DNA of 64,000 nt from Schmidtea polychroa (Eukaryota). Positions 17,044-36,169 of the stretch are shown piece by piece (positions within the stretch are counted from its first letter, which is position 1; every line of letters begins with the position of its first letter). The notes beneath the pieces were generated by a model. The model made no database searches. It was given only the letters and a program-made list of their open reading frames with translations, and was not told where the DNA came from. The position numbers were made by a program, and so were the translations under genes. The DNA is taken from NCBI GenBank assembly GCA_044892525.1, contig CM097885.1:162564001-162628000 (forward strand), written 5' to 3'.

Positions 17044-19328
17044 CCGTATTTTCGCGCATATACCCCGCATACGCGTATAACCCGCACACGCGTATACCCT
17101 GCACAAATTACAAAATAAGTAAAAACAAAATCGTACGACCCGCACTCTTATATACCCCGCATGTGCAAAGTGAGACTTGCCGTAAACTACCAGTACATAA
17201 GGTTGTTGCTTATCAGACGTCTGTCCCTCGAGACGCAATCGTGCTGCAGTTGTTGTTCCAACAAGCGATACATGGAGTGCAACACGCGTGTGAAATACGA
17301 TACGAGCCTACGTCGTATCTGTAGTATGTTGTTTTGACAGAAAGTCGTTGACCTAGTTATCTGGTGATGGTAGGAGAAAGATTTACTGCAGCAGCTGAGC
17401 TGGGCCCTACGATTGGCCTGATTGTGCATCGGCTGGTGCTCGGCCTTATTGTGTAGGCTATTAATTCCTGGGGTAATCAGCAGCACGGGTATTCTTGTAG
17501 TTTGAACTTCGTAGCGTATAGTGTGCAGCACGTGCAATTAAAGTGTATAAAAAAAGTGTATAAATTCTAATCAGTACTCAGTAAAGTCTTTTAAGCCTAA
17601 AAATGCCAAAGCGTAATTCATATACAGCCGATTTTAAGCTGCAAGTTTGTGCAGTTGCTGCTACAAAGGGCAATAGAGCGGCTGGAAGACAGTATGACGT
17701 TGATGAAAAGTCAGTTCGCGAATGGCGAAAAGACATTGAAAGTCTACAGCAAATTAATCCCCGCAAAAGAGCTCGTCGAGGGGGAAAGGTTAGATGGCCA
17801 CAGCTGGAGACAAACCTCACAGCATGGGTTCGCTCTCAGCATGAAAACAACAGGGCAGTGTCAACTGTTGGTATCAAACTGAAGGCGAAAATAATGGCTC
17901 CTGAAATGAAGATGGATAATTTCACTGGTAGCAACAACAGGGTTTTTAAATTCATGACACGTAATCAGCTGTCGGTTCGTGCACGGACAACTGTTGGCCA
18001 GAAACTGCCAGAGAATTGGGAAGTGAAAGTTAACGACTTTCAGGAATTTGTTAGAAAGGATATCGTTGAACAGAATTTAAATCCTTCTACTGTCTATAAT
18101 ATGGATGAGGTACCCATGTCTTTTGATATTCCGGCAACTCGCACTGTAGCGGAAAGTGGTTGTAAAACGGTTGCTATTACCACAACTGGACATGAACGCA
18201 CCTGCTTCACGGTTGTCCTGGCGTGCTCAGCTGCCGGTGAGAAGTTGAAACCATTGATTATATTCAAAAGATTGACAATGCCACGTGAGAAACTGCCTCA
18301 GGGAGCAATCGTACTGTGCAACAAAAAAGGATGGATGAACACGGACGTGATGAAAGAGTGGACTGAACGATGCTTTCGTGCTAGACAGGGTGGATTCTTT
18401 CTGCCAAAGTCGTTGTTGATTTTTGATGCAATGGCTGCACACAAAGAGCCGTCTGTTCACAAACAGATCAATAAGACCTGTGCGCACATTGCTGTCATTC
18501 CGGGTGGCTTAACATGTAAGCTTCAGCCACTTGACATCGCTGTTAATCATTCATTCAAGTGTTTTGTCAGCAACGAATGGGAGAAATGGTTGAGTGAAGG
18601 AGAACACACATTCACACCATCAGGAAAGCAGAGATGTGCTACGTACATTGAAGTATGCAAATGGGTTCTGGCAGCGTGGCAGCAAATCAGCACTGAAACT
18701 ATTCGCAATGGTTTCAAGAAGGCTGGCCTGCTAACAGTTAGTGAAGCTAATTCAGAGCCAGCAGTAGGGGGCAGCTTCATTTCGGCCGACAATGTGAACG
18801 CTGATACTGACGATGATGATAGTGATGAAGAGTCGATTTATGACCCAACTGCTGTTGCCAACATGCTTCGCTTATTTGAAGAAGACAGTGAATATGATAC
18901 GAGTTTCGATGGCTTCACTAACTATAGCGAGGACAGTGACATTAGTGAGACTGGCGATTGATTGCGGCTGTATTGCATGCATTGTAGTCTATACGTTTCG
19001 ACACTACTGGTATCGGCAAATTAGTTTAGTTGCTTACCTACTTGTTACATTTGATTACTAGTATATTAAAGATTCTCTGCCGCATCGGTACTATTTGTTT
19101 TCTTGAGGTTTATAATGAGATGTTCATAAAGCTTTCCAATGTACATTTCACAACCACACAGCGAACTATAGGAGGTATAAAGACCCACCGGTATGTCAAT
19201 AGTTTCCGTTATGCTATGTTTATGAGTAAAATAAATTTTGTAAACCCCGCACCTTTGTATACCCCGCACAGCTGCCATTCGTTTGGAAAAACTTGTATAA
19301 CCCGCGGGTTATATGCGCGAAAATACGG
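17044..19328 (+). mobile_element. Full-length pogo-family (Tc1/mariner superfamily) DNA transposon, 2285 bp
   Basis: Perfect 19-bp TIRs CCGTATTTTCGCGCATATA; TA TSD at 17042-17043 and 19329-19330; intact transposase inside. Confidence 0.95.
17603..18961 (+). CDS. pogo transposase, DD35D (Brinker-like HTH + CENP-B HTH + DDE_1)
   Basis: NMDEVP, LIFDAM and LQPLD with 35 residues between the last two Asp; 452 aa, uninterrupted; acidic C-terminal tail. Confidence 0.92.
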   Translation: MPKRNSYTADFKLQVCAVAATKGNRAAGRQYDVDEKSVREWRKDIESLQQINPRKRARRGGKVRWPQLETNLTAWVRSQHENNRAVSTVGIKLKAKIMAPEMKMDNFTGSNNRVFKFMTRNQLSVRARTTVGQKLPENWEVKVNDFQEFVRKDIVEQNLNPSTVYNMDEVPMSFDIPATRTVAESGCKTVAITTTGHERTCFTVVLACSAAGEKLKPLIIFKRLTMPREKLPQGAIVLCNKKGWMNTDVMKEWTERCFRARQGGFFLPKSLLIFDAMAAHKEPSVHKQINKTCAHIAVIPGGLTCKLQPLDIAVNHSFKCFVSNEWEKWLSEGEHTFTPSGKQRCATYIEVCKWVLAAWQQISTETIRNGFKKAGLLTVSEANSEPAVGGSFISADNVNADTDDDDSDEESIYDPTAVANMLRLFEEDSEYDTSFDGFTNYSEDSDISETGD

Positions 19329-19773
19329 TACTAAATTTATATTTAAAATGTTAGTGTAAATTATATAATTTAATTTTAATTGTATTTTTAAATTGCATAT
19401 ATTTTGAATATTAATAAATTAATTTTTATTTCTATTGTCTAATTTCATCAATAAGTTTAAAAAGTCTAACTGATAATAAATTAATTTCTTATTTACAATT
19501 ATTTTATAAATTATAAATTATATTATTATATTATATTAAATTATATTAATATAATATAATAATATAAAAATAATATAAAATTTAATTATATTAAATTATA
19601 TTAAAATATATTAAATTATATTATTATAAATTATTATGAATTTACTACGATTCATTTAATTTTTTTGATTGAAAAGGATAATATATCTAATAATTAATAT
19701 TTTAAATTATCTTTTGTGATAATTATTTTCGAAATTGAAATATTTAGTGTAAAATAAATTTAAATAATAAATT

Positions 19774-21016
19774 AGTAGGTAGATAGTGGCCTACGGGAAC
19801 AATTACCCCCCCCCCCCCCCGGGGGGGGGGGGGGGGTTTGTTCCCAAATTTTTATTACGCAATTGTTCCCAACTCATTTTTTTGCTTTCAGGGATTTTTG
19901 GTCCAAATTTTTTTTTATCACACTATAGTGAGAGGGTCTTGATGGTCCTGGGAATTTCTATACAAAAATCCGACTACCACTAAAAAAGCCAAGGATTATT
20001 CACACTATAGTGAGGGGGTCTCGATGGTCCTGGGATTTTCAATACAAATAAAATTTTTTCTATACAAAAATCCGACTACCACTAAAAAAGCCAAGGATTA
20101 TTCACACTATAGTGAGGGGGTCTCGATGGTCCTGGGATTTTCAATACGAAAAATTTTTTTCTATACAAAAATCCTACTATCAATAAAAAAGCCAAGGATT
20201 TATCACGCTATAGTGAGGTGAGTCTCCTTGGTCCTGAGAAATAGGTGGTCTACACTAAAAAACGTGGTAAATTTTTCAATTACAGTAAATTACGGTCCAA
20301 ATTTTTCAATTAAAGTAAATAATGGTTCTAAAAATTAAATTAAAGTTAATTATGGCTCAAATTTTTCAAATAAGGTAATTATGGTTCTAAAAAATTAAAT
20401 TAAAGTTAATTATGGCTCAAATTTTTTAATTAAAGTAAATAATGGTTCTAAAAATTAAATTAAAGTAAATTATGGTTCTAAAATATTAAATTACAGTAAA
20501 TTATGGTCCAGATTTTTCAATTAAAGTAAATAATGGTTCTAAAAATTAAATTAAAGTTAATTATGGCTCAAATTTTTCAATTACAGTAAATAATGGTTCT
20601 AAAAATTAAATTAAAGTAAATTAAGGTTCTAAAAAATTAAATTAAAGTTAATTAAGGTCTAAATTTAAAATTAAGTAATCAATGGTAAAAAATTTTAAAT
20701 AAGTAATAATTTTTAAATAAGTAAATTAAAGTAATAATTTTTAAATAAGTAAATTAAAGTAATGTAATAAGTAAATTAAAGTAAGATTTTAAAATTTATT
20801 AACAAAAAGTTGAAGGTGTTTGAGAATTGAAATTTTTTAATGGAAATTTTTATGAAATATTTTTTTAAGTAATTTTTAATGGAAATTTTTATGAAATATT
20901 TTTCAATGATAATTTTAGATGGAAATTTTTAAGATAACTTTTAATGAAAATTTTTATGAAATATTTTTCAAAGTCAAATGAAAATTTTAACGAAATAATA
21001 ATAAAAATAATAATAA

Positions 21017-21069
<53 letters not shown>

Positions 21070-21148
21070 TATCGACCAAATACATAAAAATGAACTAGAC
21101 ACATAAAACACAAACAATTAACAAATGTAAAGATATAAAATTTATTCA
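19774..21148 (+). repeat. Left TIR of the Polinton (1375 bp) with internal tandem arrays
   Basis: Reverse complement of 34332-35984. Contains a C15G16 hairpin, ~80-105-bp CACTATAGTG repeats, ~30-bp AT-rich repeats and an (ATA)n tract. Confidence 0.92.
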
Positions 21149-21154
21149 ATAAAA

Positions 21155-24100
21155 TTAGTCCTCATCGGACAAAATAACGTCATCGATATCGATGTCATCT
21201 TCTTCATTAAATTCTTCCTCATCTTCTCCAAAATCTTCATTTAATTCTTCCTCATCTTCTCCATCATTTTCTCCATCATTTTCTCCATCATTTTCTGAAA
21301 CATTTTCTGCAACAATTTCTCCAACATTTTCTCCAATATTTAATTCACTTAATCTTACATGCCCATATGCAAGACTAGCGTTTTTCCCCACCCAAACCCT
21401 TTTGTCATCTTTGTTTGTTAGTGCTATTTTTGTGTTTTTAATTGTAAAAATTTGATGATTTTTGCTTGTTATTTTAGTCTGAGGAACCGAAAAAATCTGG
21501 TTAGTGTTATAACAATCCAGGTATGACTGATGTTTTATGTCACTACCTTTCAATGTTACACCTTTAGCCTTTTTTGTTTCCTCATCACCCAACAAGCTAT
21601 AACATTTAGGTCTAAGAAAAACCCACTCCTTATATTTAAGACCTTTATTCTCGTCTTTGAACTTTCCAATGACTGAATCAAGGTTCTTACTATATAAGGA
21701 ATGACAACTATTGTAATTGGAAGTATCTAATAAATTATCTCGAATCATTGCAGGTAAAAGAACCTCAAGTTTGCAGTTAATGACTTCGAGGAAAAAAGAA
21801 TCTGTATCACCTGCAACGATATTAATTTTACAATTAAACTCATTGCGAAATGATTCCAGATCCTTATATTGCAATTCATACATTCTAAGTTTAGATAGAT
21901 CAAGTACAGATTGACCAATGTAACTCGGTCTATCTAAACATATAGAATCTGAATTCAATAGTGTTGCAATTAAATTATCAGCTATTTTAATAGATTTTTT
22001 AAAAGTCGGTTTTGACGAATATTTAACTAATTTACCGGCAGTTGTACAAAGACGAAGATTCATTCTTCTCTTTAAATTTTCAACTGTTTTGCCGTATAAA
22101 CTGTTATTTAGCAATTTATAATAATTTTTATCTAAGTTATTTACGCTTTTTGATCTTAATTCGGTATTTGTATCTATATATTTTTTAAAAATTGGTGATT
22201 GCTTAAATCTTACACCTCTATTTACATGTGTTACTTTAACACCAAGTTCTAAATATAATTTTAATAATCTCCAATGAATAACATAATTAGATTTTGGAAG
22301 ATGAGTTAATAATAATTTTTCAACCTTAGACCCAGCAGGTTTCATTTTTTCAGCAGCTACAGGGAAATCATCCAACTTATCATGAAGCTCAGAAGGAATT
22401 ACAAGATCAACTTCAAGTGTGTATCCATAAGACAAAGATTCAAGATTTAAATTCCTACATTCATCCAGTATTTTATCAAATCCATCAAGAACCCAACAAA
22501 ATTCGCCACAAGGTAATGATTGACTTAAAGCCCACCCATAAAGATTATTAATATCTATATAAAGTAACTCGGTGTTCTCGTCGGTTTTTACGTAATGCTT
22601 ATTCACAAAAGTAAGACCGCCTCTTATTCCACCCTCATAAAAGCTAAACATTTCGTTTTCAGTTATGAGTTCAATTGGTTCATTTAAAGACATTAATGCA
22701 GAAGACCAAGACATGCCTGGAATTCCGAAATAATTCAAAGGTTCTAATCTATTGTGAGCAATTGATTTCAACCTAAACTGATGAAAGAAATCAGCCAAAA
22801 GAAAACAATCAAGTTTTAGGTAGATCATCATATAATCTAATAAAGTTCTGCAATTAGATTCTACCCAAATCTCCTGAGCTTTTTCATACTCAAGCTCAGT
22901 GACACCCTCCCAGATTGGTGGTAATTCATACGTAGTTTGTAGAACATCTAAAGAAGTGGCGAAATTATAAGGGAAGATTCCTTTTTCACCTACTATGGTG
23001 CCAGAAAAAGCAGAATTAGTAAAAGGCAAAGAATTCAAAGTTTTGACTGCTTTAGCCAAAGAATCATTGACAAATTGATATGAATCAATGAATCTTATGC
23101 TAATTTTGCCTAAATGAGCAATCAAAGATATAAATTTTTCCGTAGTTATTGGGATGCACCCTAAATTCCAATTTTTAAATTTATTTAATCCATATTTAAG
23201 TATATGATGCATATCGTATCCCTTCAAGTTGTGAAATACGATAGGCAAAATTTTATTTATTTTTCTATTTACGTTACATGTGCTACAAGCTGCACCCAAG
23301 TATTTGCCCGTAAAATGATCGTGATCTCTAACAGGATCCACGATAGATTTCAAACAAAGATAACAAACCGTTGAATTAATGAATTGTTGTTGCTCAATTT
23401 TAGTTAATTTAATCATTGGTTTCCTACCCATTTTATAATAAAAAGGAAGAACCTTATTTAATGCTATATCCTCTATAGCACTTAAAAAACTCTCGACGCA
23501 ATCTAAACCTATAAACTGTTGATAGGATTTAGATCCGTCAAAGTTATTTACTAGTAAAAGACCAGCAGATATTGGCATGTGTCGCTGAAAATGAACATTA
23601 TCACAAGGTAAAATAGCCTCAAAATCGGCATAAACTACGAAAGGAGGAGTTACTGTTTTCGACCAGTCAGTAAACTGTAAGAATTTATTTTCAGGGAAAG
23701 TATAAAGAGTAGTTCCTAATTGATTGCGTTTGCATAATATTTCATGTTTTTCTAGTGCGTTTCTGTTGTTAAAACCATTCAAACAACGATGACACCATAT
23801 TGATCGTATGCGTGTAGGACAACTAGTGTTTATGTGGCAATTCAGTAACCTATTTAAATTGCTTATAGCAATGTAATGGAAATTGTTCCCTTTATTTAAT
23901 AATAGTAAATTAATTACTGTTCCATTTAAAACTTTGGAACGATGTATAATGTCTAAATGGGGGTGTTTTAAAACGTAATTATCTGTTAATTGTTTGTTAT
24001 TGTCATAAGAAAAAACATTAATTATTAAACCAGGATTTTTGGCCTCGAATTTTCTAATATCTTTTAATTTCATTGGTAAGTCTAATGGATTATATATTAA

Positions 24101-25351
24101 CTCAGATAAATTATAACTGGATGTTCTATTTCTATATTGTTTAATAACTTCATCATATTTTAAAATAGCTAAAATGCTATATAAAAAACACGAATCGTCG
24201 GTGTTTTTTACATTAATTAAACAATATTTATTTTTTAGACAAGTAGGTAGTTCAATGAAACTCCTACCACTTAATCTACTTAGCCTACTTATCTTTGTTA
24301 TGGTGAAGTGGATTTCAGTTATTTTTTTTATGATCCAACTACTTCCTAACTCTGTGATATTACTTATTTTCTCGTTTAGTTCCCTAATGCCTTCGTCAAA
24401 AAATGAGGCAGTTAAAGGTTTTGCGTAATTCGAAATATTATTAACCTTTATTTCCCCGTCTTTTTCAAATTCGATTGTTATTCCGAATTGAATTTTGACG
24501 GAGCCTAATTCGTTAATAATATCTCGTAATTTTATAATTAATTGTTCTGGAAATATTATTTCCTTTATATTCAAGTTACTTGTATTTAGACTTAAAATTT
24601 GATGTGTACCCCTTAAATCTTTTTGTACTATGGGTACATTACCTCCTATTTGTACATTAGTAGTCGAAGAGTCGAGTGAAAGATTATCAAATTCATTATT
24701 GGGTTCGCCTACATCCCAAGAGTCGAGTGAAAGATTATCAAATTCATTATTGGGTTCGCCTACATCCCAAGAGTCGAGTGAAAGATTATCAAATTCATTA
24801 TAGGATTCATCAACTAATCCGACCTGGGATTCAACAAAAGGCAATCCATCATTGGATTCAGCAAAAGACAATCCATCATCGGATTCAGCAAAAGACAATC
24901 CATCATTGGATTCAGCAAAAGACAATCCAACATTGGATTCAGCAAAAGGCAATCCATCATTGGATTCATCAACTAATCCGACCTGGGATTCAACAAATGT
25001 ATTTAATTTAATTTTTTTATTAGTAGTATTTATTTCAATAGTTGAAGGACGTTTAAAAATAACATCTTTTTTAGAATTGAACCTATCTAAATGTTGTTTA
25101 TGCTTATTATAAAAAACGCTATATGTTAAGGGCTCGCTAATCTTACATATGGGGCATATAAAAAAAGTTTTATTATAGTATTTTTTAGAATAATAATTCT
25201 CCATTATAGAATGGCAATTATTATGTTCTTTCGACGAACAATAATTTGGATAAAGTATACCTAAAATATATACATTTAAAAATTTGGCTAAAACATTTGA
25301 TAAAAATAATACTATTAAAATTTTCTTATAATTTTGCATGTATGCATCCAA
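21155..25351 (-). CDS. Protein-primed family B DNA polymerase (pPolB) with N-terminal extension
   Basis: Exo motifs YADFEA, FHNLKGYD, YLKLDC; Pol motifs DINNLYG, KLLNNSLYGK, GDTDS. Also an EndoVII-like CYLC...DHDHFTG...CxxCN insert and a C2H2-like CHRC...HEILC. Confidence 0.96.
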   Translation of the reverse strand: MDAYMQNYKKILIVLFLSNVLAKFLNVYILGILYPNYCSSKEHNNCHSIMENYYSKKYYNKTFFICPICKISEPLTYSVFYNKHKQHLDRFNSKKDVIFKRPSTIEINTTNKKIKLNTFVESQVGLVDESNDGLPFAESNVGLSFAESNDGLSFAESDDGLSFAESNDGLPFVESQVGLVDESYNEFDNLSLDSWDVGEPNNEFDNLSLDSWDVGEPNNEFDNLSLDSSTTNVQIGGNVPIVQKDLRGTHQILSLNTSNLNIKEIIFPEQLIIKLRDIINELGSVKIQFGITIEFEKDGEIKVNNISNYAKPLTASFFDEGIRELNEKISNITELGSSWIIKKITEIHFTITKISRLSRLSGRSFIELPTCLKNKYCLINVKNTDDSCFLYSILAILKYDEVIKQYRNRTSSYNLSELIYNPLDLPMKLKDIRKFEAKNPGLIINVFSYDNNKQLTDNYVLKHPHLDIIHRSKVLNGTVINLLLLNKGNNFHYIAISNLNRLLNCHINTSCPTRIRSIWCHRCLNGFNNRNALEKHEILCKRNQLGTTLYTFPENKFLQFTDWSKTVTPPFVVYADFEAILPCDNVHFQRHMPISAGLLLVNNFDGSKSYQQFIGLDCVESFLSAIEDIALNKVLPFYYKMGRKPMIKLTKIEQQQFINSTVCYLCLKSIVDPVRDHDHFTGKYLGAACSTCNVNRKINKILPIVFHNLKGYDMHHILKYGLNKFKNWNLGCIPITTEKFISLIAHLGKISIRFIDSYQFVNDSLAKAVKTLNSLPFTNSAFSGTIVGEKGIFPYNFATSLDVLQTTYELPPIWEGVTELEYEKAQEIWVESNCRTLLDYMMIYLKLDCFLLADFFHQFRLKSIAHNRLEPLNYFGIPGMSWSSALMSLNEPIELITENEMFSFYEGGIRGGLTFVNKHYVKTDENTELLYIDINNLYGWALSQSLPCGEFCWVLDGFDKILDECRNLNLESLSYGYTLEVDLVIPSELHDKLDDFPVAAEKMKPAGSKVEKLLLTHLPKSNYVIHWRLLKLYLELGVKVTHVNRGVRFKQSPIFKKYIDTNTELRSKSVNNLDKNYYKLLNNSLYGKTVENLKRRMNLRLCTTAGKLVKYSSKPTFKKSIKIADNLIATLLNSDSICLDRPSYIGQSVLDLSKLRMYELQYKDLESFRNEFNCKINIVAGDTDSFFLEVINCKLEVLLPAMIRDNLLDTSNYNSCHSLYSKNLDSVIGKFKDENKGLKYKEWVFLRPKCYSLLGDEETKKAKGVTLKGSDIKHQSYLDCYNTNQIFSVPQTKITSKNHQIFTIKNTKIALTNKDDKRVWVGKNASLAYGHVRLSELNIGENVGEIVAENVSENDGENDGENDGEDEEELNEDFGEDEEEFNEEDDIDIDDVILSDED

Positions 25352-25406
25352 TCAAAATTAATTATTTGCTATAAATGATAATTTAATGAAATAAATTTAA
25401 CAAAAA

Positions 25407-25839
25407 ATGTCTACTATAAATAGTATCCTATTAGAAGAAAATAGTACATCAGTTATAGGTATGGTATGTAAACCTCCTATTCAATTCCTTCAATATAATA
25501 TGTACTATTTGAAATATCCTATTACTTATTCGTTCAAGGTAATTTTTTATTTAATTATTTAATATTAATTTGTTATAGGAACCAGTTAATTTAAAAACAT
25601 GTCAATTCAATATTCAAATTGGAGATATTGGGGAAGAAGATAGAAAAAATCTTGGAGAAATTCTTAAATTAATTAATAAAGAAATGATTTTTAATGAAAA
25701 ATTTACATTTATCAATTGTGAAAAAGGGTGTAAATTAGACGAAGATAAAAAATCAAAAGTGCGAATACTTATTCAAGGAGTCAAGATAAATGGAGTTATA
25801 ATTAAACCAATTTGGAAAATTACAAATGTTTTTGAATAA
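25407..25839 (+). CDS. Spliced 130-aa ORF, possible OB-fold ssDNA-binding protein (exons 25407-25538, 25579-25839)
   Basis: ATG 25407; 40-nt phase-0 intron GTAATT...TTATAG (25539-25578); exon 2 open for 87 codons to TAA inside AATAAA. The SSB call rests only on the C-terminal KVRILIQGVKINGVIIKPIWKI strand pattern and its position next to pPolB. Confidence 0.7.
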
Positions 25840-25914
25840 ATATTTAAGTGTTATTTTAAATGTTGTTGAAAAAAATTTTAAAGTTAATAAGTATTTAATA
25901 AGGGTCAGATTATT

Positions 25915-26945
25915 ATTAAAGAGTACTGCATGCTCACTGCAGACTATTATGTAGCTACGTGCTCACTGTAGACTACATTATTATATTAAAGAGTACTGCA
26001 TGCTCACTGCAGACTATTATGTAGCTACGTGCTCACTGTAGACTACATTATTATCATTATAAAAAAAATTTGCGAGGGATTTCCCCTTATTTCAAAATAA
26101 ATATCATTAATAATAATTTCATTATAAAATATTATTTAAAAATGTTAATAATTTCATCATTATAAAAAAATTTTACGAGGGATTTCCCCTTATTTCAAAA
26201 TAAATATCATTAAAAAATAACATTAATAATAATTTCATTATAAAATATTATTTAAAAATGTTAATAATTTCATCATTATATAAAAAAAAATTTTTACGAG
26301 GGATTTACCCTTATTTCATTATAAAATTTTATTTAAAATATTAGTAAAATATTAGATTATAAAAAATGAGTGAATTTCCTCTTAAGATCAAATAAAATTT
26401 TATTAAAAAATTATATAAAAATATCATTAATAATCATTAAAAAATATTAGTAATTTCATCTTATAAAATTTTATAAAAAATTGATAAAAATACTTACATT
26501 TGACATTTTTGTTCATAGTTTCATTCATTTCAGAATTTTTGTTCATTTTCATAGTTTTTTAGTTTCAATCTTTTTTATCTAAAAAATAATTAAATTTTAA
26601 TAATTAAAAAATAAAATTCTTACAATCCTTGGTACTAGCAAATTATGAGCAAATTTTAAAAACAAATCATTTATATACTTCTTCTTCTACTTAATACATT
26701 ACGTAATAATTAAAGGATTAAATTTGATACCATGCGTAATAATTAAAAGATTAAATAACTTACATAATAATTAAAGGATTAAATAACTTGCATAATAATT
26801 AAAGGATTTAATACCTTACATAATAATTAACTTAATTAAAGATTTAGTTTAATAATCAACTAAAATTTAAATTTTAATAATCAATTATATTGAATTAATA
26901 ATCAACTAAAAATTTATTGAAATAATCAGCTAAAATTTATTGAAA
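25915..26945. repeat. Non-coding repeat-array spacer inside the Polinton
   Basis: 2 x 70-bp unit (25921, 25991); 3 x GAGGGATTT(C/A)CCCTTATTTC units (about 26074, 26177, 26298); ~28-bp TAATAATTAAAGGATT array (26700-26830); AATAATCAACTAAAATTT repeats. Confidence 0.8.
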
Positions 26946-26966
26946 ACAACTTTTTATTATAAAAAT

Positions 26967-27345
26967 TTATTTCATTGACTTTAACCAAGCCAAACAATGT
27001 TGTCCACATGTTTTTGTTATAGGGTTTTGGTAACGTATTCGATTGTATTCAATCGGCATTGACATTGATTGTAGTTTATTGATTAATATAGGTGGATAAT
27101 AGAATCCCATTGGATCAAATGCATATATTTTGTCTGGTTTCACGTATACTGCAAGCCAATGTTCACCATTCAGATTAGCAGATTGAGTATTTACAATTAT
27201 TGCTTTGTTGACATCTAAATAAGGTATTTTGTCTAATGGGAAAACACCTAGAAATTCTTTTCCTAGTAATTTTCTTCCGATAACATGTATCTGAATAGAA
27301 CTAAATTAATAATAATTAAATAATTTAAATTAATTCTTACTTCAT
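26967..27345 (-). CDS. Adenain-type cysteine protease (PRO), spliced: exon 1 27345-27341 (ATGAA), exon 2 27300-26967; 112 aa
   Basis: Removing the 40-nt GTAAGA...TTTAG intron (27340-27301) gives MNSIQIHVIG...FLGVFPLD...IVNT...GEHWLAV...FDPMG...Q...TCGQHC, with the His, Asp, Gln and Cys catalytic motifs. Confidence 0.92.
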
Positions 27346-27379
27346 ATTTGATTAATTGATTTTCGATATTTGGTTTATA

Positions 27380-28603
27380 TTATACCAAAACAGTACGAGT
27401 AGATGTAATTTGAATTTCTTTTTCAAAAACTCCATATACGATTACAGAAACAGCTTCAGTAAGTGAAGATGCGAATTTAATATCTAATCGCAAATTTCCA
27501 CTTTGTGGTAACTGACTTTGATGAAGATCAAAATCTGGTGCCAATACGAATGTAAAGAATGGATACTTGCTCTTAAAATCAGACATGGTGATACCACAAT
27601 TCATATTTTTATTTAGATAACCCATATTTCTAATAATCGATTGCATATAACTTGTACTATAATCATCATTCTCAAAATCTTGACTATATTTTTCGCGATA
27701 ATCACTTCCTTTACTTAAAGTTATGGACTTGACATTAAAGTGATCAAATAAAGAAAATGATTCTGAAAACGATCCACTAAATCTTTTACTAGATTGAAAT
27801 GCAACAAGTATAAAATTAGGTAATCGTCTATCTCCAAATATTTGTTCTTTATAAAAAGAGGAAGAACCAATAGGTAATGAGAAATCAACAACTTCTTTGC
27901 TTCTTAAAGGATAAATTGCATTTTTGGTAGACAGACCAATTTGATGTCCTGCCAAAACCGATGGTTCAACACGAACTCTTCTAACCATTAATTTTGCGTC
28001 TAATAATAAAATTTTCGGTTCAATTTTCGCACAAGTTAAACTAAGTGTTGGATTTGATCTTGTTAATTTAATTTGAACACTAACACCTGGTAGTAAATAT
28101 TTAGGTTGATCAAAGAAATCAAATTGAAGTGGGGAACATAAAGAAAAGGATTTTGATTTTTCAATCCATGTTTTTCTCGTAAGATCTTTGTTAGTATACC
28201 CCATTCCACCTAAAGATGTTCGTTTAGTATCTCCGTCATAATTTATAAGTGTTTCAATTAATGCTTTGTGGGCAAATCTATCATTTGATCCTTCAACTTT
28301 GATTGAATTAAAAATTAATTCAACATCTTTAAAAAGGGTTTGGAAGAAGAAATTATTTGGAATTACTTCTGATTCGCCTAAATTCTCACCTAAATTATTA
28401 ACAACTTTCAATTGAATATATAACAAAGTATCATTCAAATCTAAATATTCAGTCTGCGATCCATTTATGTAAAATTGAATCGAAGAAGAACCGGCATCTG
28501 TAATTGAATTTCTTGGGTATACATCTTCAAATGCTCCATGTTCAATCACTGCTTGGGGAGAAGGTCTATCAAAAAGACATAATTCTGATTTAGCACTAAT
28601 CAT
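27380..28603 (-). CDS. Major capsid protein (double jelly-roll, Polinton PY/hexon-like)
   Basis: KSELCLF N-terminus, YLDLNDTLLY, QFDFFDQPKYLLPGVSVQIKLTRS and GNLRLDIKF; 407 aa; sits in the structural block. Confidence 0.9.
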   Translation of the reverse strand: MISAKSELCLFDRPSPQAVIEHGAFEDVYPRNSITDAGSSSIQFYINGSQTEYLDLNDTLLYIQLKVVNNLGENLGESEVIPNNFFFQTLFKDVELIFNSIKVEGSNDRFAHKALIETLINYDGDTKRTSLGGMGYTNKDLTRKTWIEKSKSFSLCSPLQFDFFDQPKYLLPGVSVQIKLTRSNPTLSLTCAKIEPKILLLDAKLMVRRVRVEPSVLAGHQIGLSTKNAIYPLRSKEVVDFSLPIGSSSFYKEQIFGDRRLPNFILVAFQSSKRFSGSFSESFSLFDHFNVKSITLSKGSDYREKYSQDFENDDYSTSYMQSIIRNMGYLNKNMNCGITMSDFKSKYPFFTFVLAPDFDLHQSQLPQSGNLRLDIKFASSLTEAVSVIVYGVFEKEIQITSTRTVLV

Positions 28604-28998
28604 TTTTCAAAGATGGTACCATATCCTTTCATTCTTTTGTTTATATGTTTCTTCATAATTTTTCGGCGTTTAAGTATTCCGCCTTTTTGTTCTTTATCAT
28701 TTTTAAATACATCGGATACTTTATTAATTACTTCAGGTAAATGTTGCATCACAGCTGGTAATGATTCTTTAATTTCAGAAATTGCATTTGATTTTAAAGC
28801 AGGCAAGATATTTGCATTGTTATTTATTACGTCATTAGCTGTTTTCATACCAAAATTTCCTATTCGTCTAAGAATTGGGAGTGCAAATCTACCTATTGTC
28901 TTCAACCAACCGGTTCCATATTGTTTACCAACAAAATATGGTAAATCACCACCCGATTGGTTACTACTATAAAAATGTATTATGTCAGGATTACTCAT
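28600..28998 (-). CDS. Small virion-associated protein with amphipathic segment (pVI/pX-like)
   Basis: QSGGDLPYFVGKQYGTGWLKTIGRFALPILRRIG pattern as in small conserved Polinton ORFs; basic C-terminus. Confidence 0.7.
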   Translation of the reverse strand: MSNPDIIHFYSSNQSGGDLPYFVGKQYGTGWLKTIGRFALPILRRIGNFGMKTANDVINNNANILPALKSNAISEIKESLPAVMQHLPEVINKVSDVFKNDKEQKGGILKRRKIMKKHINKRMKGYGTIFEK

Positions 28999-30007
28999 TT
29001 ATTTTACGAAAATGTAATGTCAAGTATGTTTTATCTTCTTTTCCAAATATATATTTTCCACTATCATCTCGTATATTGATTTCTATATTGTTTATATATG
29101 AAGACGATACAGGTAAGTACATTGGATTCTTTTCAATTATTTGTACTAAATCATCTTTTTTATGTTTTTCCACCCAAATACATTTCAAAAGAGGGACCAA
29201 TGTATCACCAACAATAATAGGTTCGATAATATTTGTATAGATCATCAATTGTTGATTGCGTTGTAATACTTCAGGTTCTTTAAAACCAATAATAAGTTTG
29301 TCAGTATATGCTTCTTCTAATAATCCTAAACTATTGGCTAAAAATTTACTAAATTGAACTTTACTGACATCATCATCCATTACAATTTTAACGATTTTTC
29401 CTTTTTGAATATCAACAGATTTAAATGGACGAGGATAAAAGAGTGATAGTTGATCATTTATTTGTGAAAGATCTGTAATGATATTTTCTTCGAATGTATC
29501 TGTATACTCGACATCGTAATAATATTGTATAGTTAATCGAATTGTATCAAACTTTATTTTTCGATTATTTGGAGGAATAGTGATTTGGTTCAAGGCTTTT
29601 TTAAAAGTTATTTCTTTTTCTGAAAATCCCAATTTTTGCGCTTCTTTAATACTATCGAATTCTACTTTAAAAGGAAAATATTTACAATTAATGTTCAATG
29701 TATTTCCATCAATATATATTAAATAAAATGGAGAGTCGTGACTGATTGTATATTCATTTTTTTCTTGGTTAAAGTAAAAGTATTCATAACTTGTATGTAA
29801 TACACTTTTACTATATTTGACATTTGAATTACTGTAAAAAGGAAAATAATTATACACAAAGGTAAAGTCCATGAGAGCTACTTCCCATTCACCATCCAAG
29901 TAAATAGGATTTTGAAATTCGACATTAAATTTACCAGCTTCATTATTTGGATGAGTCTGAGGACAACTATTAGAAGGTAAATTCACATAAAAATCTTTTT
30001 TAATCAT
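28991..30007 (-). CDS. Minor capsid protein (penton-like), paralog B
   Basis: FYVNLPSNS...FQNPIYLDGEWEVAL N-terminus; IYTNIIEP...VPLL...NPMYLPV...NIEINIRDDSG...LTLHFRK C-terminus. Confidence 0.88.
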   Translation of the reverse strand: MIKKDFYVNLPSNSCPQTHPNNEAGKFNVEFQNPIYLDGEWEVALMDFTFVYNYFPFYSNSNVKYSKSVLHTSYEYFYFNQEKNEYTISHDSPFYLIYIDGNTLNINCKYFPFKVEFDSIKEAQKLGFSEKEITFKKALNQITIPPNNRKIKFDTIRLTIQYYYDVEYTDTFEENIITDLSQINDQLSLFYPRPFKSVDIQKGKIVKIVMDDDVSKVQFSKFLANSLGLLEEAYTDKLIIGFKEPEVLQRNQQLMIYTNIIEPIIVGDTLVPLLKCIWVEKHKKDDLVQIIEKNPMYLPVSSSYINNIEINIRDDSGKYIFGKEDKTYLTLHFRKINE

Positions 30008-31025
30008 TTATTTTACGAAAATGTAATGTCAAGTGTGTTTTTGTATCTCTACTAAATTTTATTAATTTTCCACTATCATCTCGTATATTGATTTCAATGT
30101 TGTTTATAGAAGAATTAGAAATTGGTAGATACATTGGATTCTTCATTTCTAGTTGCACAATTTCTCCTTGTTCATATTTTTTTATCCAAATAGATTTCAA
30201 TAACGGAACTCTTACATCTCCAACAGTCAATGGTTCGATAATATTTGAGTAAATAAACATTTGTTGATGATGATTAAATAACTTTGGAATTTTTGTTCCA
30301 ATAATTTCTTTCTCTGTAAATGTTTGTTTCTTTAATCCCAATGTTTTTGTTAAATTTTTATCAAAGGTTATTGATGAAATGTTATCAGCAAGACTTATTT
30401 TAACCAATTCATTATTTTGTATTTTTAAATCTTTAAAGGGAGACGGATTAATTGTCATTAACTGACCATGTATTTCAGATAAAGTATTGATGTATAATTC
30501 ATCTTCGAAATAATGTTCAAATTTTGTTTTTTCAACAACACTTATAATTATACCAAATTGATCAATTGTTTTATCTTCTGTAAATTTTGGTAATTTAATT
30601 CGCAAATGATCACTATCACTAATAACCGATACTGATTTTAATCCAAATTTAATAGCATGTTCAAAATCTGGAAACGTTATTTTAAATGGAACATGTGGAC
30701 AAACAACAACCAAATTCTCATATCTTTCAATGAACATGTCAACTTCAGGAGTATTTTTAGGATTTATTACTTCAAAGGTTCGATTTGAATTATTTATTCT
30801 AAAATATTTAATTTCTTCATCCATCTTTACTTTTTCATATTGTATCAATGAATTACTGTAATAAGGAAAAGTATTATACACAAAGGTAAAGTCCATGAGA
30901 GCTACTTCCCATTCACCATCCAAGTAAATAGGATTTTGAAATTCGACATTAAATTTACTAGCTTCATTATCGGGGAAAATAAGAGGACAACTATTAGAAG
31001 GTAAAATAATATAAAAATCTTTCAT
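30000..31025 (-). CDS. Minor capsid protein (penton-like), paralog A
   Basis: Same terminal motifs as paralog B; the central ~200 aa are highly divergent. Confidence 0.88.
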   Translation of the reverse strand: MKDFYIILPSNSCPLIFPDNEASKFNVEFQNPIYLDGEWEVALMDFTFVYNTFPYYSNSLIQYEKVKMDEEIKYFRINNSNRTFEVINPKNTPEVDMFIERYENLVVVCPHVPFKITFPDFEHAIKFGLKSVSVISDSDHLRIKLPKFTEDKTIDQFGIIISVVEKTKFEHYFEDELYINTLSEIHGQLMTINPSPFKDLKIQNNELVKISLADNISSITFDKNLTKTLGLKKQTFTEKEIIGTKIPKLFNHHQQMFIYSNIIEPLTVGDVRVPLLKSIWIKKYEQGEIVQLEMKNPMYLPISNSSINNIEINIRDDSGKLIKFSRDTKTHLTLHFRKIND

Positions 31026-31030
31026 AATAT

Positions 31031-32179
31031 TTATTTAATCAATTGATTTTCAGATATCCAAGATGGAGTTTCATATCCATGCCATTTAACATAGTATTGT
31101 TTATATTTACCATCTTTTTTGGTTTTTAAAATCTTTTGAATTCTAAATATTGTAGGAGCAGGAATTACTTGGAGTTCTTGTTCATAGAATTTACCAGTGA
31201 TTGGTTTGTTTTCATGATCAACTATCACATACATGACAGGATTCTGTTTTGTATCGATTTTAAAAATTTGATATACTTCATCACTCCAATTATTATCAAA
31301 GTTTTTGATGAATGGTGAAGAATTGATTTTACTAATTCTTACATGATCACCAACCTTGTATTTCGGTTTATTGATTTTTTCTGACTTTGTTTGATTTTTA
31401 GTAAAATCTGCAGGTGTTTGTCCTTTTAATCCTCTGTGTGGTGAATGATTGTAACTGAAAATAATTTTTGGCAAAACATTTATCCAAGTTTTATTACCTT
31501 GATATACAAAATATTTTTTCAAGCGTTCTCTTAAAGTTCGATTAAATCGTTCTACGTGAGCAGCTTTGAACTGAGAAAATACCGAGTAATGGTTTATTCC
31601 TTTGATAACCTCTTTAACTTTGCTGTTATAAAATTCTTTACCTAAATCATATATTTAAAAATTAATTAATTAAATTTAATTACCTAAATCCGTTTGTAAA
31701 TTAATAGGTTTACCATCTGCAAACATTTCTTTTATCGCATCAGCCATTTCATTTGCAGATTTAGTTTTTGTAGGAACAGCACGAGCATATCTATTAAAAA
31801 CATCTATACAAGTCAGAATATATTTGTACCCCTTGTTAATTTTTGAATAAGGTATCATTTCCATCAAATCCATTTGCCATACATCATTGTTTCCAATTGT
31901 TTTGTATGGTCTTGTTGGAAAACGTTTCAACATTGGTTTATTTAAACTATATGCTAATTGATTAGATAACCATTTCTGAGTTTCTTTCTTTGAATTATTC
32001 ACTCGTTTTGTTAATTTTTCTACGCCACCAAAACCATCTGGATCTTTTGGGTTTGTCCATATGGTTTTTAACTTTTTCTCTATTGTTTTCACTTTTTTCA
32101 CTTTTGTTTTCACATTTGTTTTCACTTTTGTTTTCATTTTTTCCACTTTTGTGTTGGTTTTGTGATACGTTTCCTTCAT
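31031..32179 (-). CDS. Retroviral-like (RVE) integrase with C-terminal chromodomain; exons 32179-31684 and 31641-31031; 368 aa
   Basis: WQMDL (D1). QTDLG|KEF (D2) is restored by removing a 42-nt GT-AG intron (31683-31642). VERFNRTL (E). YYVKWHGY...SWI chromodomain. Confidence 0.92.
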
Positions 32180-32248
32180 TATTACAACAAGTTGTCAAAA
32201 TATTAAAATCTACAATATTTTTATTTGGTAATGAACTCTTGATACCCA

Positions 32249-32575
32249 TTAAGAACTTAATGATGAGATTGCACTAATTGCAGATAAGACTATAGGAATT
32301 AGTGCACCCAAGAACCCTCCTTTTTGTTTATATATTATCTTTCTCATTAGACGACGATTTTTTGTATCAACTAGAGATAAAAGTGATCTTTTATGTCTTT
32401 GCAATACTAATCTTTTAGCTTTAGTTATATTTACATTACCGCGGACAACATTTATAATAACTTCAAGTAAATCATCAATAACAAATGATGGAAAAGACTG
32501 TAAAATTGATATTCGTTTCGAATTTGGTGCCTTTATTAAAGCATTAAAATATGGTAAGCTCCGTTCAAATTTCAT
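32249..32575 (-). CDS. Basic core-like protein (pVII-like Polinton ORF), 108 aa from the ATG at 32575
   Basis: EVIINVVRGNV...LQRHK...KQKGGFLGALIP pattern. The track's start at 32620 is a non-ATG codon. Confidence 0.7.
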   Translation of the reverse strand: MKFERSLPYFNALIKAPNSKRISILQSFPSFVIDDLLEVIINVVRGNVNITKAKRLVLQRHKRSLLSLVDTKNRRLMRKIIYKQKGGFLGALIPIVLSAISAISSLSS

Positions 32576-32604
32576 TATTATTATTAATTTACGCGACGGT
32601 TTGT

Positions 32605-32757
32605 TTATAATTTGATCCACTTCTTGATTTGTTTCTTAGTTTTTGTAGTTTTTGTACCTTTTGATCCACTTTTTGTTTTCTTTGTACGTTTTGTTTTCTT
32701 GGTAATTTTCTTCGAAACACTTGGAAGATTTTTAACAACTACTTTTTTAAATGACAT
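32605..32757 (-). CDS. 50-aa Lys-rich basic protein (candidate DNA-condensing protein)
   Basis: MSFKKVVVKNLPSVSKKITKKTKRTKKTKSGSKGTKTTKTKKQIKKWIKL: 19 Lys, 1 Arg, no acidic residue. Fills the gap between the ATPase and core-like genes. Confidence 0.65.
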   Translation of the reverse strand: MSFKKVVVKNLPSVSKKITKKTKRTKKTKSGSKGTKTTKTKKQIKKWIKL

Positions 32758-32776
32758 GATTAATTTTATTTAGTTT

Positions 32777-33400
32777 TTAGTTTTGTTTATAAATCGTAAC
32801 ACCGTTTATATTAAAAATATCAGTTCTAATACGCATATCATCTGGACATTGTTGTGTAAAATCAAAAAATAAATATCCATGAGGAATTTTTGTTGCATCT
32901 TGGAATGAATCAATCAAAAATTTTCTATTATTTGGATAAGCTTGTCTTGCAAGAAAATCTATTATTGTTTGATCTCTAGGATTTTTGAAAATAATTAAAT
33001 ATTGGACATTTAAATTACGTGTTCTATGACTTCCACCTTGATGAAAAAGATTTTGTGTAATGAAAATAACTGTAACTCCACAATGTCTACTGATTTTTGT
33101 AAATAAATTATTAAAATCTTTTTCTTTATTTGCTTCCTGGTACAGATCATCGATAATAATAACATCACCTTGACGTAATCTAGATGACCAATTTTTATCA
33201 AATCCTTTAATTATTGTCATTTTTAATTTACAGAAACTGTTTTGAGTCAATCCATGTTCTTCATCTGCACCTCGATGCCAATATATTTTATTAAATTTAG
33301 ATTTAAACATGTTTGATTGTAATAAATTACATACAAATAAAGTTTTCCCGCTTCCACTAGGTCCAACTATTTGATATACTGCGTCATTTCTTAATTCCAT
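32777..33400 (-). CDS. A32/FtsK-like genome-packaging ATPase
   Basis: Walker A GPSGSGKT, Walker B IIIDD, FTKISRH, FITQN. Confidence 0.95.
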   Translation of the reverse strand: MELRNDAVYQIVGPSGSGKTLFVCNLLQSNMFKSKFNKIYWHRGADEEHGLTQNSFCKLKMTIIKGFDKNWSSRLRQGDVIIIDDLYQEANKEKDFNNLFTKISRHCGVTVIFITQNLFHQGGSHRTRNLNVQYLIIFKNPRDQTIIDFLARQAYPNNRKFLIDSFQDATKIPHGYLFFDFTQQCPDDMRIRTDIFNINGVTIYKQN

Positions 33401-33450
33401 TTTTTAATTAAATTATTTTATTTAATTTGTTTATAATTACAATAATTAGA

Positions 33451-33927
33451 ATGATCAGCAACATTAATTATAGAGGAAGATGTGTAGTTAATGGAATGAA
33501 GTTTCCATCAGGAAAACCTCAACATGTCGTGGACAGAAGTGGAAAATATCCAATTTTATTCTTCAAGAGCGGGAAATGTAGGATAATGGGATGTAAGAAA
33601 CCATTACAGGAAGGCGATCTCAAATATCAGATTCAAGATTTACAAATCCAATCAATTACATTAACGCTAGATATGGGTACATGCATTGATTTAAATGCAT
33701 TGTCAAGGAAAACCGATAGTTACTACGAGCCTGAAATATTTCCAGCTTTACGTATTCTCAAGTATAACCCCCTATGTGTAAATGTTTTTTCAAGTGGGAA
33801 AGTTGTTATATTAGGGATTAAAACATTTGATTATTTTAATCAAATTCAAGAAATTCAGAAATTCATTAAATCATTAACTATAAATATCACAACAAATGAA
33901 GAAATATTGGAATATTTATTAAGTTAA
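33451..33927 (+). CDS. TATA-binding-protein-like protein, 158 aa
   Basis: Two TBP-like repeats: ILFFKSGKCRIMGCK and YEPEIFPALRI...NVFSSGKVVILGIK, plus SNINY and IQSITLT strands. ATG at 33451 (the track uses TTG 33427). Confidence 0.85.
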   Translation: MISNINYRGRCVVNGMKFPSGKPQHVVDRSGKYPILFFKSGKCRIMGCKKPLQEGDLKYQIQDLQIQSITLTLDMGTCIDLNALSRKTDSYYEPEIFPALRILKYNPLCVNVFSSGKVVILGIKTFDYFNQIQEIQKFIKSLTINITTNEEILEYLLS

Positions 33928-33990
33928 TTAAATTAATTTAATTAATTGTGTTTAAATTAACTGAATATCTACAATAACAAAAATTCAAAA

Positions 33991-34338
33991 ATGGATGACG
34001 ATAAGCAAGCTTACATATTCCAGACTATATTAACGAAGATGGAAGAATTGTTCCCGAATATAAAGAACAGACTTTCATATTGTGCTCCGGAATTATTAGC
34101 TTATAGAATCAAGCAATTAACTGGGATCAATATAGAAGAACTTATACGAAGACATTTCGAATCTGTACAAGAATCAAGATTTAAATGCATAGACGATTGT
34201 GAAGTATGTATGGATCCGATGAAATTACCATGTCCGTTTAGATGTAGATGCTGCCAAGAATATAAGATGAAAGAAGTTGTTCATATTTTACTAGCAGAAT
34301 TAAGAAGAGCTTATTACAAGCAAATATTGGATGAATAA
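33991..34338 (+). CDS. Cys-rich protein of unknown function, 115 aa
   Basis: ATG in A-rich context; CIDDCEVCMDPMKLPCPFRCRCC cluster; the stop falls in the AATAAA at the TIR boundary. Confidence 0.75.
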   Translation: MDDDKQAYIFQTILTKMEELFPNIKNRLSYCAPELLAYRIKQLTGINIEELIRRHFESVQESRFKCIDDCEVCMDPMKLPCPFRCRCCQEYKMKEVVHILLAELRRAYYKQILDE

Positions 34339-35984
34339 ATTTTATATCTTTACATTTGTTAATTGTTTGTGTTTTATGTGTCTAGTTCATTTTTATGTAT
34401 TTGGTTGATATATTATTTTTATTATTATTATTATTATTTTTATTATTATTATTTCATAAAAATCTTCATTAAAAGTTATCTTAAAAATTTCCATCTAAAA
34501 TTATCATTGAAAAATATTTCATAAAAATTTCCATTAAAAATTACTTAAAAAATTATTCCATAAAAATTTCTATTAAAAATTACTTAAAAAATTATTTCAT
34601 AAAAATTTTCATTAAAAAATTTCAATTCTCAAACACCTTCTATTATTTCAACTTTTTGTTAATAAATTTTAAAATCTTACTTTAATTTACTTATTACATT
34701 ACTTATTTAAAAATTATTACTTTAATTTACTTATTTAACTTTAATTTAAAATTTTTGACCATTGATTACTTAATTTTAAAATTTGGACCTTAATTAACTT
34801 TAATTTAATTTTTTAGAACCTTAATTTAGTTATTTGAGCCCATTCATTACTTTAATTTAAAAATTTGAACCATAATTTACTGTAATTCAAAAATTTGGAC
34901 CTTAATTTACTTTAATTTAATTTTTTAGAACCATAATTTACTGTAATTGAAAAATTTGGACCAATACTTACTGTAATTTAATTTTTAAGAACCATTATTT
35001 ACTTTAATTTAATTTTTTTAGACCCATAATTTACTTTAATTAAAAAATTTGAGTCATAATTTACTTTAATTTTTTACCATTATTTACTGTAATTAAATTT
35101 TTTAGAACCATTATTTACTTTAATTGAAAAATTTTGACCATTATTTACTTTAATTGAAAAATTTGAACCATAATTTACTTTAATTTTTAGAACCATTATT
35201 TACTGTAATTTAATTTTTAGGACCATTATTTACTTTAATTGAAAAATTTACCACGTTTTTTACTGTAGACCACCTATTTCTCAGGACCAAGGAGACTCAC
35301 CTCACTATAGTCTGAAAAATCCTTGGCTTTTTTAGTGTAGACCACCTATTTGTATTGAAAATATCCTGAGACCTTAAATTACCATGCTTTTTTAGTGTAG
35401 ACCAGCTTTTTGTATTGAAAATATCCCGAGACCTTAAATTACCATGCTTTTTTAGTGTAGACCACCTATTTCTCAGGACCAAGGAGACTCACCTCACTAT
35501 AGTCTGAAAAATCCTTGGCTTTTTTATTGGTAGTAGGATTTTTGTATTGAAAATCCCAGGACCATCGAGACCCCTTCACTATAGCGTGAAAATTCCATGC
35601 TTTTTAGTGGTAGTCGGATTTTTGTATAGAAATTTTTTTTTTGTATTGAAAATCCCAGGACCATCGTTTTTGTATAGAAAAAATTTTTTCGTATTGAAAA
35701 TCCCAGGACCATCGAGACCTCCTCACTATAGTGTGAATAATCCTTGGCTTTTTTAGTGTAGACCAGCTTTTTGTATTGAAAAAAATTTTTTGTATTGAAA
35801 ATCCCAGGACCATCGAGACCCCCTCACTATAGTGTGATAAAAAAATAATTTGGACCAAAAATCCCTGAGAGCAAAAAATGTGAGTTGGAACAATTGCGTA
35901 ATAAAAAGTTGGAACAATTTTACCCCCCCCCCCCCCCCCCCGGGGGGGGGGGTAATTGTTCCAGTGGGCTACTATCTACCTACT
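34332..35984 (-). repeat. Right TIR of the Polinton (1653 bp)
   Basis: Inner boundary TGAATAAATTTTATATCTTTACATTTGT matches 21121-21148 exactly; has extra repeat units around 35290-35520. Confidence 0.92.
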
Positions 35985-36169
35985 TAAATTGCTATTATTA
36001 TGGCATTAAAGGACTTTATATATTATATTTTAAAAAAATCTAATCATTATTTCTCAGTCAAATACCATTCTCAGTTTGATATGAAGTTAACAAGTGGATT
36101 ACATACTCCTTTATCAGAATAAATGTTTATCAATAACAAGTTATTACAATATTTTTATTCGTTAATAAA

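Follow-up and report, generated by a model that had tools for sequence, protein, structure and literature searches.

A recently amplified Polinton of Schmidtea polychroa with predicted introns in core genes, a shortened TBP-fold protein and candidate TATAAAC promoters

Anatomy of the element

The window analysed here is a stretch of 64,000 nucleotides of the Schmidtea polychroa genome (assembly GCA_044892525.1, contig CM097885.1, positions 162,564,001 to 162,628,000 of the forward strand). It carries an element of a known kind, a Polinton/Maverick of 16,211 bp (19774-35984), flanked by a perfect TAAATT target-site duplication (TSD) at 19768-19773 and 35985-35990. An earlier note on this DNA had described a complete, apparently virion-competent Polinton made of two modules, each driven by one bidirectional promoter. 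The perfect 6-bp TSD, the gene order and the strands given there are all recovered, and the window copy, compared with sister copies, is free of nested insertions. The features are as follows (positions in the window; aa, amino acids; ORF, open reading frame).

19768..19773: left TSD TAAATT
19774..21148: left terminal inverted repeat (TIR) with internal tandem arrays (102, 30 and 13/39 nt units); an AATAAA lies in its inner end, directly past the pPolB stop
21155..25260, minus: pPolB predicted exon 2, with zinc-finger-like start, repeat linker, weak endonuclease VII/HNH-like insert and PolB motifs
25261..26497, minus: predicted pPolB intron, 1,237 nt, phase 1, GTAAGT...TTTTAG, with the SSB-like gene inside on the opposite strand
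25407..25839, plus: SSB-like gene (exon 25407-25538, predicted 40-nt intron 25539-25578, exon 25579-25839); a function as SSB is weakly indicated
25909..26325: spacer repeats, 70 nt twice and 116 nt twice; 70-nt unit about 88% conserved in a sister family
26498..26552, minus: predicted short pPolB first exon, inside the "repeat spacer" of the earlier note
26670..26677, minus: TATATAAA box, candidate pPolB promoter 125 nt before the predicted first exon (pattern match only)
26967..27345, minus: adenain-type protease, Peptidase_C5 (27341-27345, i.e., ATG plus 2 nt; predicted 40-nt intron 27301-27340; exon 26967-27300)
27373..33435, minus: ten TATAAAC sites, candidate late promoters (first bases 27379, 28645, 29096, 30108, 31105, 32332, 32609, 32791, 32810 and 33435), each 34-101 nt before a start codon
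27380..28603, minus: putative major capsid protein (MCP), 407 aa, assigned by position, conservation and one weak DJR-like match
28600..28998, minus: pVI/cupiennin-like small protein, 132 aa, with amphipathic helix and QxGG motifs; no family match
28991..30007, minus: penton (minor capsid) paralogue 1, 338 aa; identity to paralogue 2, 47%
30000..31025, minus: penton (minor capsid) paralogue 2, 341 aa (structure model)
31031..32179, minus: integrase of rve type, its tail chromo-like (exon 31684-32179, predicted 42-nt intron 31642-31683, exon 31031-31641; Pfam rve)
31995..32249, minus: small Met-Gly ORF with a Cys-Cys pair, 84 codons, conserved, overlapping the integrase start in another frame
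32249..32575, minus: core protein, 108 aa, one end resembling adenovirus pX/mu (Adeno_PX over cut-off, E 2e-6)
32605..32757, minus: small basic protein, 50 aa, 40% Lys+Arg
32777..33400, minus: A32-like packaging ATPase, 207 aa (Pox_A32 over cut-off)
33451..33927, plus: shortened TBP-fold protein, 158 aa (Pfam, structure model)
33991..34338, plus: Cys-rich accessory protein, 115 aa
34332..35984: right TIR, of a type that differs from the left TIR
35985..35990: right TSD TAAATT

Both ends of the element open with AGTAGGTAGATAGT, the end motif being AGTAGG. The TIRs are long but imperfect (about 1.35 and 1.63 kb up to the inner anchor), with 1,200 matches, 89 mismatches and 40 gap openings between left and right. 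The left TIR shows no mismatch to the TIR of another copy and the right one six mismatches to a different type; the window copy is a hybrid of two TIR types present in other copies. TIR types recombine, and TIR divergence is therefore no sign of old age and cannot date copies.

Families were assigned by Pfam curated cut-offs unless stated otherwise. The protease (with His, Asp, Gln and Cys motifs), integrase exon 1 (rve; 80 homologues), the pX-like core protein, the A32 ATPase (Walker motifs present) and the TBP-like protein exceed these cut-offs; the MCP and both pentons of the window are without a match. For pPolB, no PolB family matched at E 0.1 and Endonuclease_7 appeared only weakly, below the cut-off. 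The PolB motifs DINNLY, KLLNNSLYG and GDTDS are present and conserved in sister families. Residues 655-690 of pPolB form a weak endonuclease VII/HNH-like insert, resembling the HNH domain described for pPolB2 in the accessible part of that report (10.1101/2023.08.22.554363).

The structure model of penton 2 (pLDDT 89.7) gives a single-jelly-roll match to the mavirus penton 6g41 (Z 13.4, rmsd 6.4, 231 aligned), and it also matches a PBCV-1 capsid chain (Z 13.4) and Sputnik 3j26_N (Z 12.6). The penton gene is duplicated in the window element and single in the sister families examined. The first 180 nt of the two genes (29825-30004 and 30849-31028) are 91% identical, for proteins that share 47% overall; this 5' identity suggests gene conversion. 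The MCP is 41-67% identical to ten relatives; MCP and SSB-like profiles retrieved nothing significant from PDB, Pfam and PHROGs, nor the MCP from phage records. A sister homologue of the SSB-like protein has Atlas neighbours at 0.92-0.95 (NCLDV, DUF2738 and linear-plasmid proteins), with a recognition score under the threshold. The Met-Gly ORF, absent from the gene list of the earlier note, has 11 related ORFs in relatives, and its product may be a lipid-anchored virion protein. Clear relatives of the Cys-rich protein occur only in this genome, apart from one weak metagenomic match.

Copy number, selection and the case for particles

The family has at least 203 loci in the genome, this being the number at which the integrase junction is found with exact flanks. 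All 102 MCP matches scored are full-length, at 100% (rounded) identity. Two sets of copies were compared. Set A comprises 20 copies from the MCP-identity list, whose MCP pN of 0 arises by construction; set B comprises 20 copies taken at about every fifth of 100 listed integrase-junction matches, and was not chosen on MCP. Both ends were seen in 16 (set A) and 9 (set B) copies, with a perfect TSD in 14 and 9. Thus, 23 of the 25 two-ended copies have their own perfect 6-bp TSD, and all these TSDs differ. Between the window copy and several others, a span of about 12 kb has just 9-12 differing sites. All genes are complete and open in 11/20 copies of set A, a biased sample, and in 2/20 of set B, where some copies are partial only because the fetched span ended.

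For seven morphogenesis genes in set B, the changes that at least two element copies share comprise 44 synonymous and 18 non-synonymous ones (pN/pS 0.10, in a class that local duplicates may inflate), against 67 and 172 private changes (pN/pS 0.64; Fisher p 1e-9). Over both integrase exons, the corresponding counts are 10 and 5 shared, 20 and 56 private. This pattern would be expected from selection during replication followed by drift after insertion, and fits a recent spread that used the capsid and packaging genes. That the element is a recently amplified Polinton is almost certain. The earlier description of a complete one is borne out, and its full morphogenesis set is under purifying selection.

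Whether it forms virions, as the epithet "virion-competent" of the earlier note implied, is for us an even bet. The family may instead live as a transposon entirely within cells and retain its capsid-type genes for some other purpose, e.g., shielding replicating DNA, or may depend on a helper large DNA virus that reads the promoter motif. The closest solved folds, the mavirus and Sputnik pentons, would suit such dependence, and palindromic derivatives from which modules are missing have also spread in the genome. However, shared branches show purifying selection for the protease, the ATPase, the MCP, both pentons and the core proteins, and the predicted spliceosomal introns would point to host nuclear transcription rather than to a cytoplasmic virus factory. 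On balance, this alternative appears unlikely.

Several derivatives and relatives were encountered on the way. Mirror-image derivatives occur, with loci at C2:2389764 and 2392696 and at C1:67845417 and 67849553 among those noted: one copy carries pPolB and the SSB-like gene at both ends, has a perfect TSD and lacks integrase and ATPase, and MCP pairs stand head to head elsewhere. The genome contains about 600 integrase loci (203 + 109 + 79 + 212) that belong to several related Polinton families, and TBP-like genes are very numerous in it. One sister family carries a Bcl-2-family gene (5914-6345, minus strand of its locus; Pfam E 1e-7) and has a different module layout, in which pPolB faces the structural genes. 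In a second organism's sequencing run, deep contigs are about 91% like the element and shallow ones 99-100%, for which contamination or recent transfer are both possible.

Predicted introns in core genes

The earlier statement that all recognisable genes are open stands only if introns are spliced; unspliced, the integrase (42 nt, three in-frame stops), the protease and the SSB-like gene (40 nt each) are interrupted. The integrase insert is GT-AG bounded, has 7% GC and sits within the D-x-G-x-E-F motif, at a position where 79 of 80 integrase homologues have a single residue. The protease insert follows the ATG and two bases; its position is kept, with a different sequence, in 6/6 sister loci and 2/6 metagenomic loci. 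Splicing of both is very probable on such sequence grounds.

These inserts could alternatively be damage, the integrase being dead and the family mobilised in trans by intron-less sister families. Other families do have a contiguous integrase motif, at 109 loci or more, and an 11-nt direct repeat flanks the 42-nt insert. Nevertheless, unrelated GT-AG inserts occupy the same site in several families (79 and 212 loci, and 81-87 nt in three more), and both integrase exons are still under purifying selection, so that damage is hardly credible. Over the loci measured, the inserts of other families span 30-87 nt and some are not a multiple of three; in one family the intron is a length-variable (TAT)n repeat. 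A fresh gain of the window intron through the 11-nt duplication was considered and dropped because other families hold unrelated introns at the same site. No intron-less integrase form of the window family was found in the genome, the sole match having other codons. In an integrase tree with intron states corrected by eye, one gain plus one loss and two gains both fit. Contigs of four sequencing runs, whose nature was guessed, revealed on 26950-34400 no integrase or protease intron joint among the joints listed; they partly skip the integrase site and are thus uninformative.

The introns of pPolB and of the SSB-like gene are probably spliced as well, judging from the conservation of their signals. 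The SSB-like intron shifts in length by 2, 7 or 9 nt in 7/18 copies, with nearly invariant exons, and the sister homologue is a single 136-aa ORF. Two introns of the host TBP gene measure 42 and 45 nt. As to pPolB, its conserved zinc-finger-like stretch is preceded by an AG whose phase-1 position is fixed; this holds for the window and for 7 of 8 other loci, and none of these eight has an in-frame ATG upstream of the conserved start. Exactly one strong phase-1 donor behind an open ATG was found in 29 of the 30 family copies with the acceptor, 867-1,800 nt upstream of it and across at least three spacer types; the chance level was 19/300 shuffles of one spacer and 6/54 tiles of other window DNA, the copies not being independent. 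The SSB-like gene would thus be nested antisense in the pPolB intron. The adenovirus polymerase likewise begins from a small distant exon. Beside these signals, the tandem 70-nt unit at 25909-26059, in the predicted pPolB intron, contains CATG-cored palindromic words and is a candidate enhancer.

If, as predicted here, Polinton core genes can be spliced, scans for open frames may call intact elements broken and misplace the polymerase start; this matters for annotation practice. In the accessible text on vertebrate Mavericks (PMC8097293), intact elements are without introns, unlike the window element with its four predicted ones. In that on nematode Mavericks (10.1101/2022.07.12.499685), the same core gene set is found in an invertebrate, but core genes are intronless and introns occur in cargo genes only. 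The described trait of intronless core genes, which is no strict definition, is thus not shared by the window element.

The TATAAAC motif, its reader and known systems

Over 26967-33450, the coding strand has ten TATAAAC and the opposite strand none (300 shuffles: mean 1.5, maximum 6). All nine structural and packaging-type genes are preceded by at least one site, at 34 nt from the start for the protease, 42 for the MCP, 98 for the pVI-like protein, 101 and 80 for pentons 1 and 2, 83 for the Met-Gly ORF, 34 for the core protein, 34 and 53 for the basic protein and 35 for the ATPase; the stretch 30-105 nt before a start makes up just 11% of the module. Among family copies, 392 matches to these sites include a single variant. 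In relatives, an ORF starts 30-45 nt past 98 of 194 TATAAAC sites, versus 2-10% for eight control words. There, the motif stands at 28-50 nt before 17/19 ATPase, 8/10 core and 7/11 MCP genes, and within 110 nt of the pVI-like gene in 9/9. At the same 28-50 nt it is absent before the starts of TBP-like (0/47), SSB-like (0/12) and pPolB genes (0/4, with an internal ATG used and not the predicted first exon). Where the motif falls inside penton genes, the Ile-Asn pair has the codons ATA AAC in 10/10 contexts, versus 35/202 elsewhere, and the constraint therefore acts on DNA. With good confidence, it can be proposed that the structural genes have separate promoters. The integrase likely rides on the transcript of the overlapping Met-Gly ORF.

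The scheme of the earlier note, one bidirectional promoter in each of two gaps (55 and 50 bp) with downstream genes reached by splicing or re-initiation, is not supported by these data. In its favour, the structural genes are tightly packed, with overlaps of 4-8 nt, and one TATAAAC (33435) does lie inside the 50-bp gap; moreover, the pPolB of this family has an open, ATG-led frame starting at 25339. Against it, nine other sites precede internal genes. The gap at 33401-33450, between ATPase and TBP-like genes, was correctly delimited, but a head-to-head layout of the two is found in just 1 of 15 metagenomic loci with both genes. The 55-bp gap at 25352-25406 had been measured from the stop-to-stop limit of the pPolB frame and lies within the predicted 1,237-nt intron, the first exon being predicted 1.2 kb beyond the supposed promoter; all eight other loci with the conserved pPolB start lack an upstream in-frame ATG, and seven have the AG acceptor. 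Shared bidirectional promoters are therefore very improbable.

The TBP-like protein is a candidate reader of the motif. It matches PF00352 at E 3e-16, and its model (pLDDT 94.5) retrieved with Foldseek, among the matches listed at E<0.001, only TBP (E down to 6e-9, TM 0.59-0.69). Instead of two complete repeats with four intercalating Phe, the model has one full TBP repeat, a first repeat without helices and three conserved Phe (38, 97 and 113), which we take to be part of TBP's four intercalating Phe. Of 84 homologues, all have Phe38 and Phe113, and 83 have Phe97. The family numbers 123 proteins, mostly of 145-165 aa. Another Polinton core gene is present at 23 of 56 metagenomic loci with a TBP-like gene, and at 15 of 21 among those of at least 3 kb; the position of the gene varies among these loci. 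Judged from this distribution, the gene is a clade marker, not a recent capture. The host also has several divergent, apparently intronless TBP paralogues beside its intron-bearing TBP gene.

That the element's own TBP-like protein reads TATAAAC seems to us a proposition with equal weight on either side. The per-gene promoters may be real but have a host reader, either TBP or a forkhead-type factor, with the TBP-like protein serving, e.g., as a decoy for TBP partners or as an origin or TIR binder. TATAAAC comes near to the canonical TATA box, stands at a distance typical of one and contains a forkhead-type word; the TBP-like first repeat is without helices, and the protein differs from TBP at conserved contact positions. 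Yet the C at position 7 is fixed, even inside coding sequence. Host TBP would have no need of it. In addition, the expected early genes, that of the TBP-like protein included, are without TATAAAC, and 83-84 of the 84 homologues retain each of the three Phe on the DNA-binding face. A host reader thus appears somewhat unlikely.

We therefore favour, at a probability of about 0.6, a young, high-copy Polinton that is likely transcribed by RNA polymerase II in the nucleus, with four predicted introns and a TATAAAC promoter for each capsid or packaging gene, likely read by the element's own TBP-fold protein. Host factors would first transcribe pPolB (from the spacer, via the 1.2-kb intron) and the SSB-like, TBP-like and Cys-rich genes, which are placed as early in this model and none of which has a TATAAAC. 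Excised linear DNA would be copied by protein priming from the TIRs, and co-replicating genomes would recombine. The TBP-like protein would then activate, one by one, the genes for ATPase, core, basic protein, Met-Gly/integrase, the two pentons, pVI-like protein, MCP and protease. Particles would be made, and new copies would be inserted by the integrase with 6-bp duplications. A bolder version, which we regard as tentative and rather doubtful, is that an animal Polinton clade evolved, independently of herpesviruses, a one-protein late switch, in which a miniature TBP steers host RNA polymerase II to a private TATAAAC before every virion gene; the family in this genome would be an endogenous virus that still cycles and forms particles, its genes being spliced and the first exon of its polymerase lying far off, as in adenoviruses.

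It should, however, be noted that several points weigh against the favoured reading. In relatives, exact TATAAAC precedes just 4/13 pentons (ATAAAC, 12/13), and for the protease it is found in 0/12 at 28-50 nt and in 2/12 within 110 nt. Four of the window sites lie 80-101 nt from the ATG, inside coding sequence, and the integrase has no TATAAAC of its own within 110 nt. The relatives are not independent, near-duplicates being included. Host factors could read the motif, which differs little from an ordinary TATA box, and its binding by the TBP-like protein is a proposal. No TBP-less Polinton was found as a control, four scans of viral contigs being without a relative; one further scan gave a distant TBP in a giant-virus-like contig. 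As to particles, purifying selection is no proof of them, and much of the family is decaying, with 2/20 set B copies intact in the fetched span. Finally, the MCP gave DJR-like_dom in one of eleven relatives only, weakly (E 0.039), and its identity, which rests on position, conservation and this match, is putative.

The closest functional parallel is ORF24 of KSHV (Kaposi's sarcoma-associated herpesvirus) with its TATTWAA word (PMC6541308; 10.1101/2025.08.25.672222). From the accessible parts of these studies, both systems would have a viral TBP-like protein, a variant TATA word about 30 nt before structural or late genes and host RNA polymerase II. ORF24 is, however, a large protein that acts in a six-member complex and binds the polymerase directly, whereas the window element, which is of an unrelated virus lineage, encodes a protein of 158 aa in which one TBP repeat is full and the other reduced. 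The element likely runs a gene-by-gene late programme as beta- and gammaherpesviruses do, the comparison being one of analogy.

Among Polintons, the vertebrate Mavericks (PMC8097293, as far as its accessible text goes) share pPolB, integrase, ATPase, protease, major and minor capsid genes and small conserved ORFs with the window element, as well as a 6-bp TSD, a length of about 16-17 kb, TIRs of up to about 1.4 kb, purifying selection on core genes and AGT-rich ends. Their two modules mostly face the centre and the ATPase is grouped with pPolB, whereas the core genes of the window element lie on one strand; the latter also has a duplicated penton, a TBP-like gene and the end motif AGTAGG instead of (AGT)2. 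The same kind of selection argument was used there for Maverick particles, which were not observed. Adintoviruses and MELD viruses (PMC8502044) likewise have hexon, penton, adenain, FtsK, integrase, pX-like and cupiennin-like accessory genes. In the accessible part of that work, a "TBP" label stands in the legend of MELD genome maps (non-animal datasets) without further study, and neither a promoter motif nor introns nor a role of the TBP are described. The Polintons of a planarian are targeted by PIWI and become de-repressed upon knock-down and in the course of differentiation (PMC8532177, accessible part). Our literature search, outside which fell Kapitonov and Jurka 2006, Repbase entries and bioRxiv supplements, found no account of a promoter motif paired with a TBP in Polintons, of introns in their core genes, of a nested SSB-like gene or of a duplicated penton. 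Whether animal Polintons make virions, and how the timing of their genes works, can be addressed in this family: its copies are many and nearly identical, and it has a candidate regulator, ten mapped sites of a seven-letter target and four predicted splice joints.

Other mobile sequences surround the Polinton in the window. An open 452-aa pogo/Tc5-type DDE transposase (17603-18961, plus strand) lies 800 nt to its left, and a diverged Polinton-like TIR remnant (37700-39020), about 80% like the right TIR, adjoins a non-LTR retrotransposon fragment. What we take to be hAT-like transposases are found at 51257-53401 and 59570-61534. A 100% identical direct repeat, at 1-300 and from 12432-12731 onward (12.4 kb apart), may represent LTR-like ends or a local duplication.

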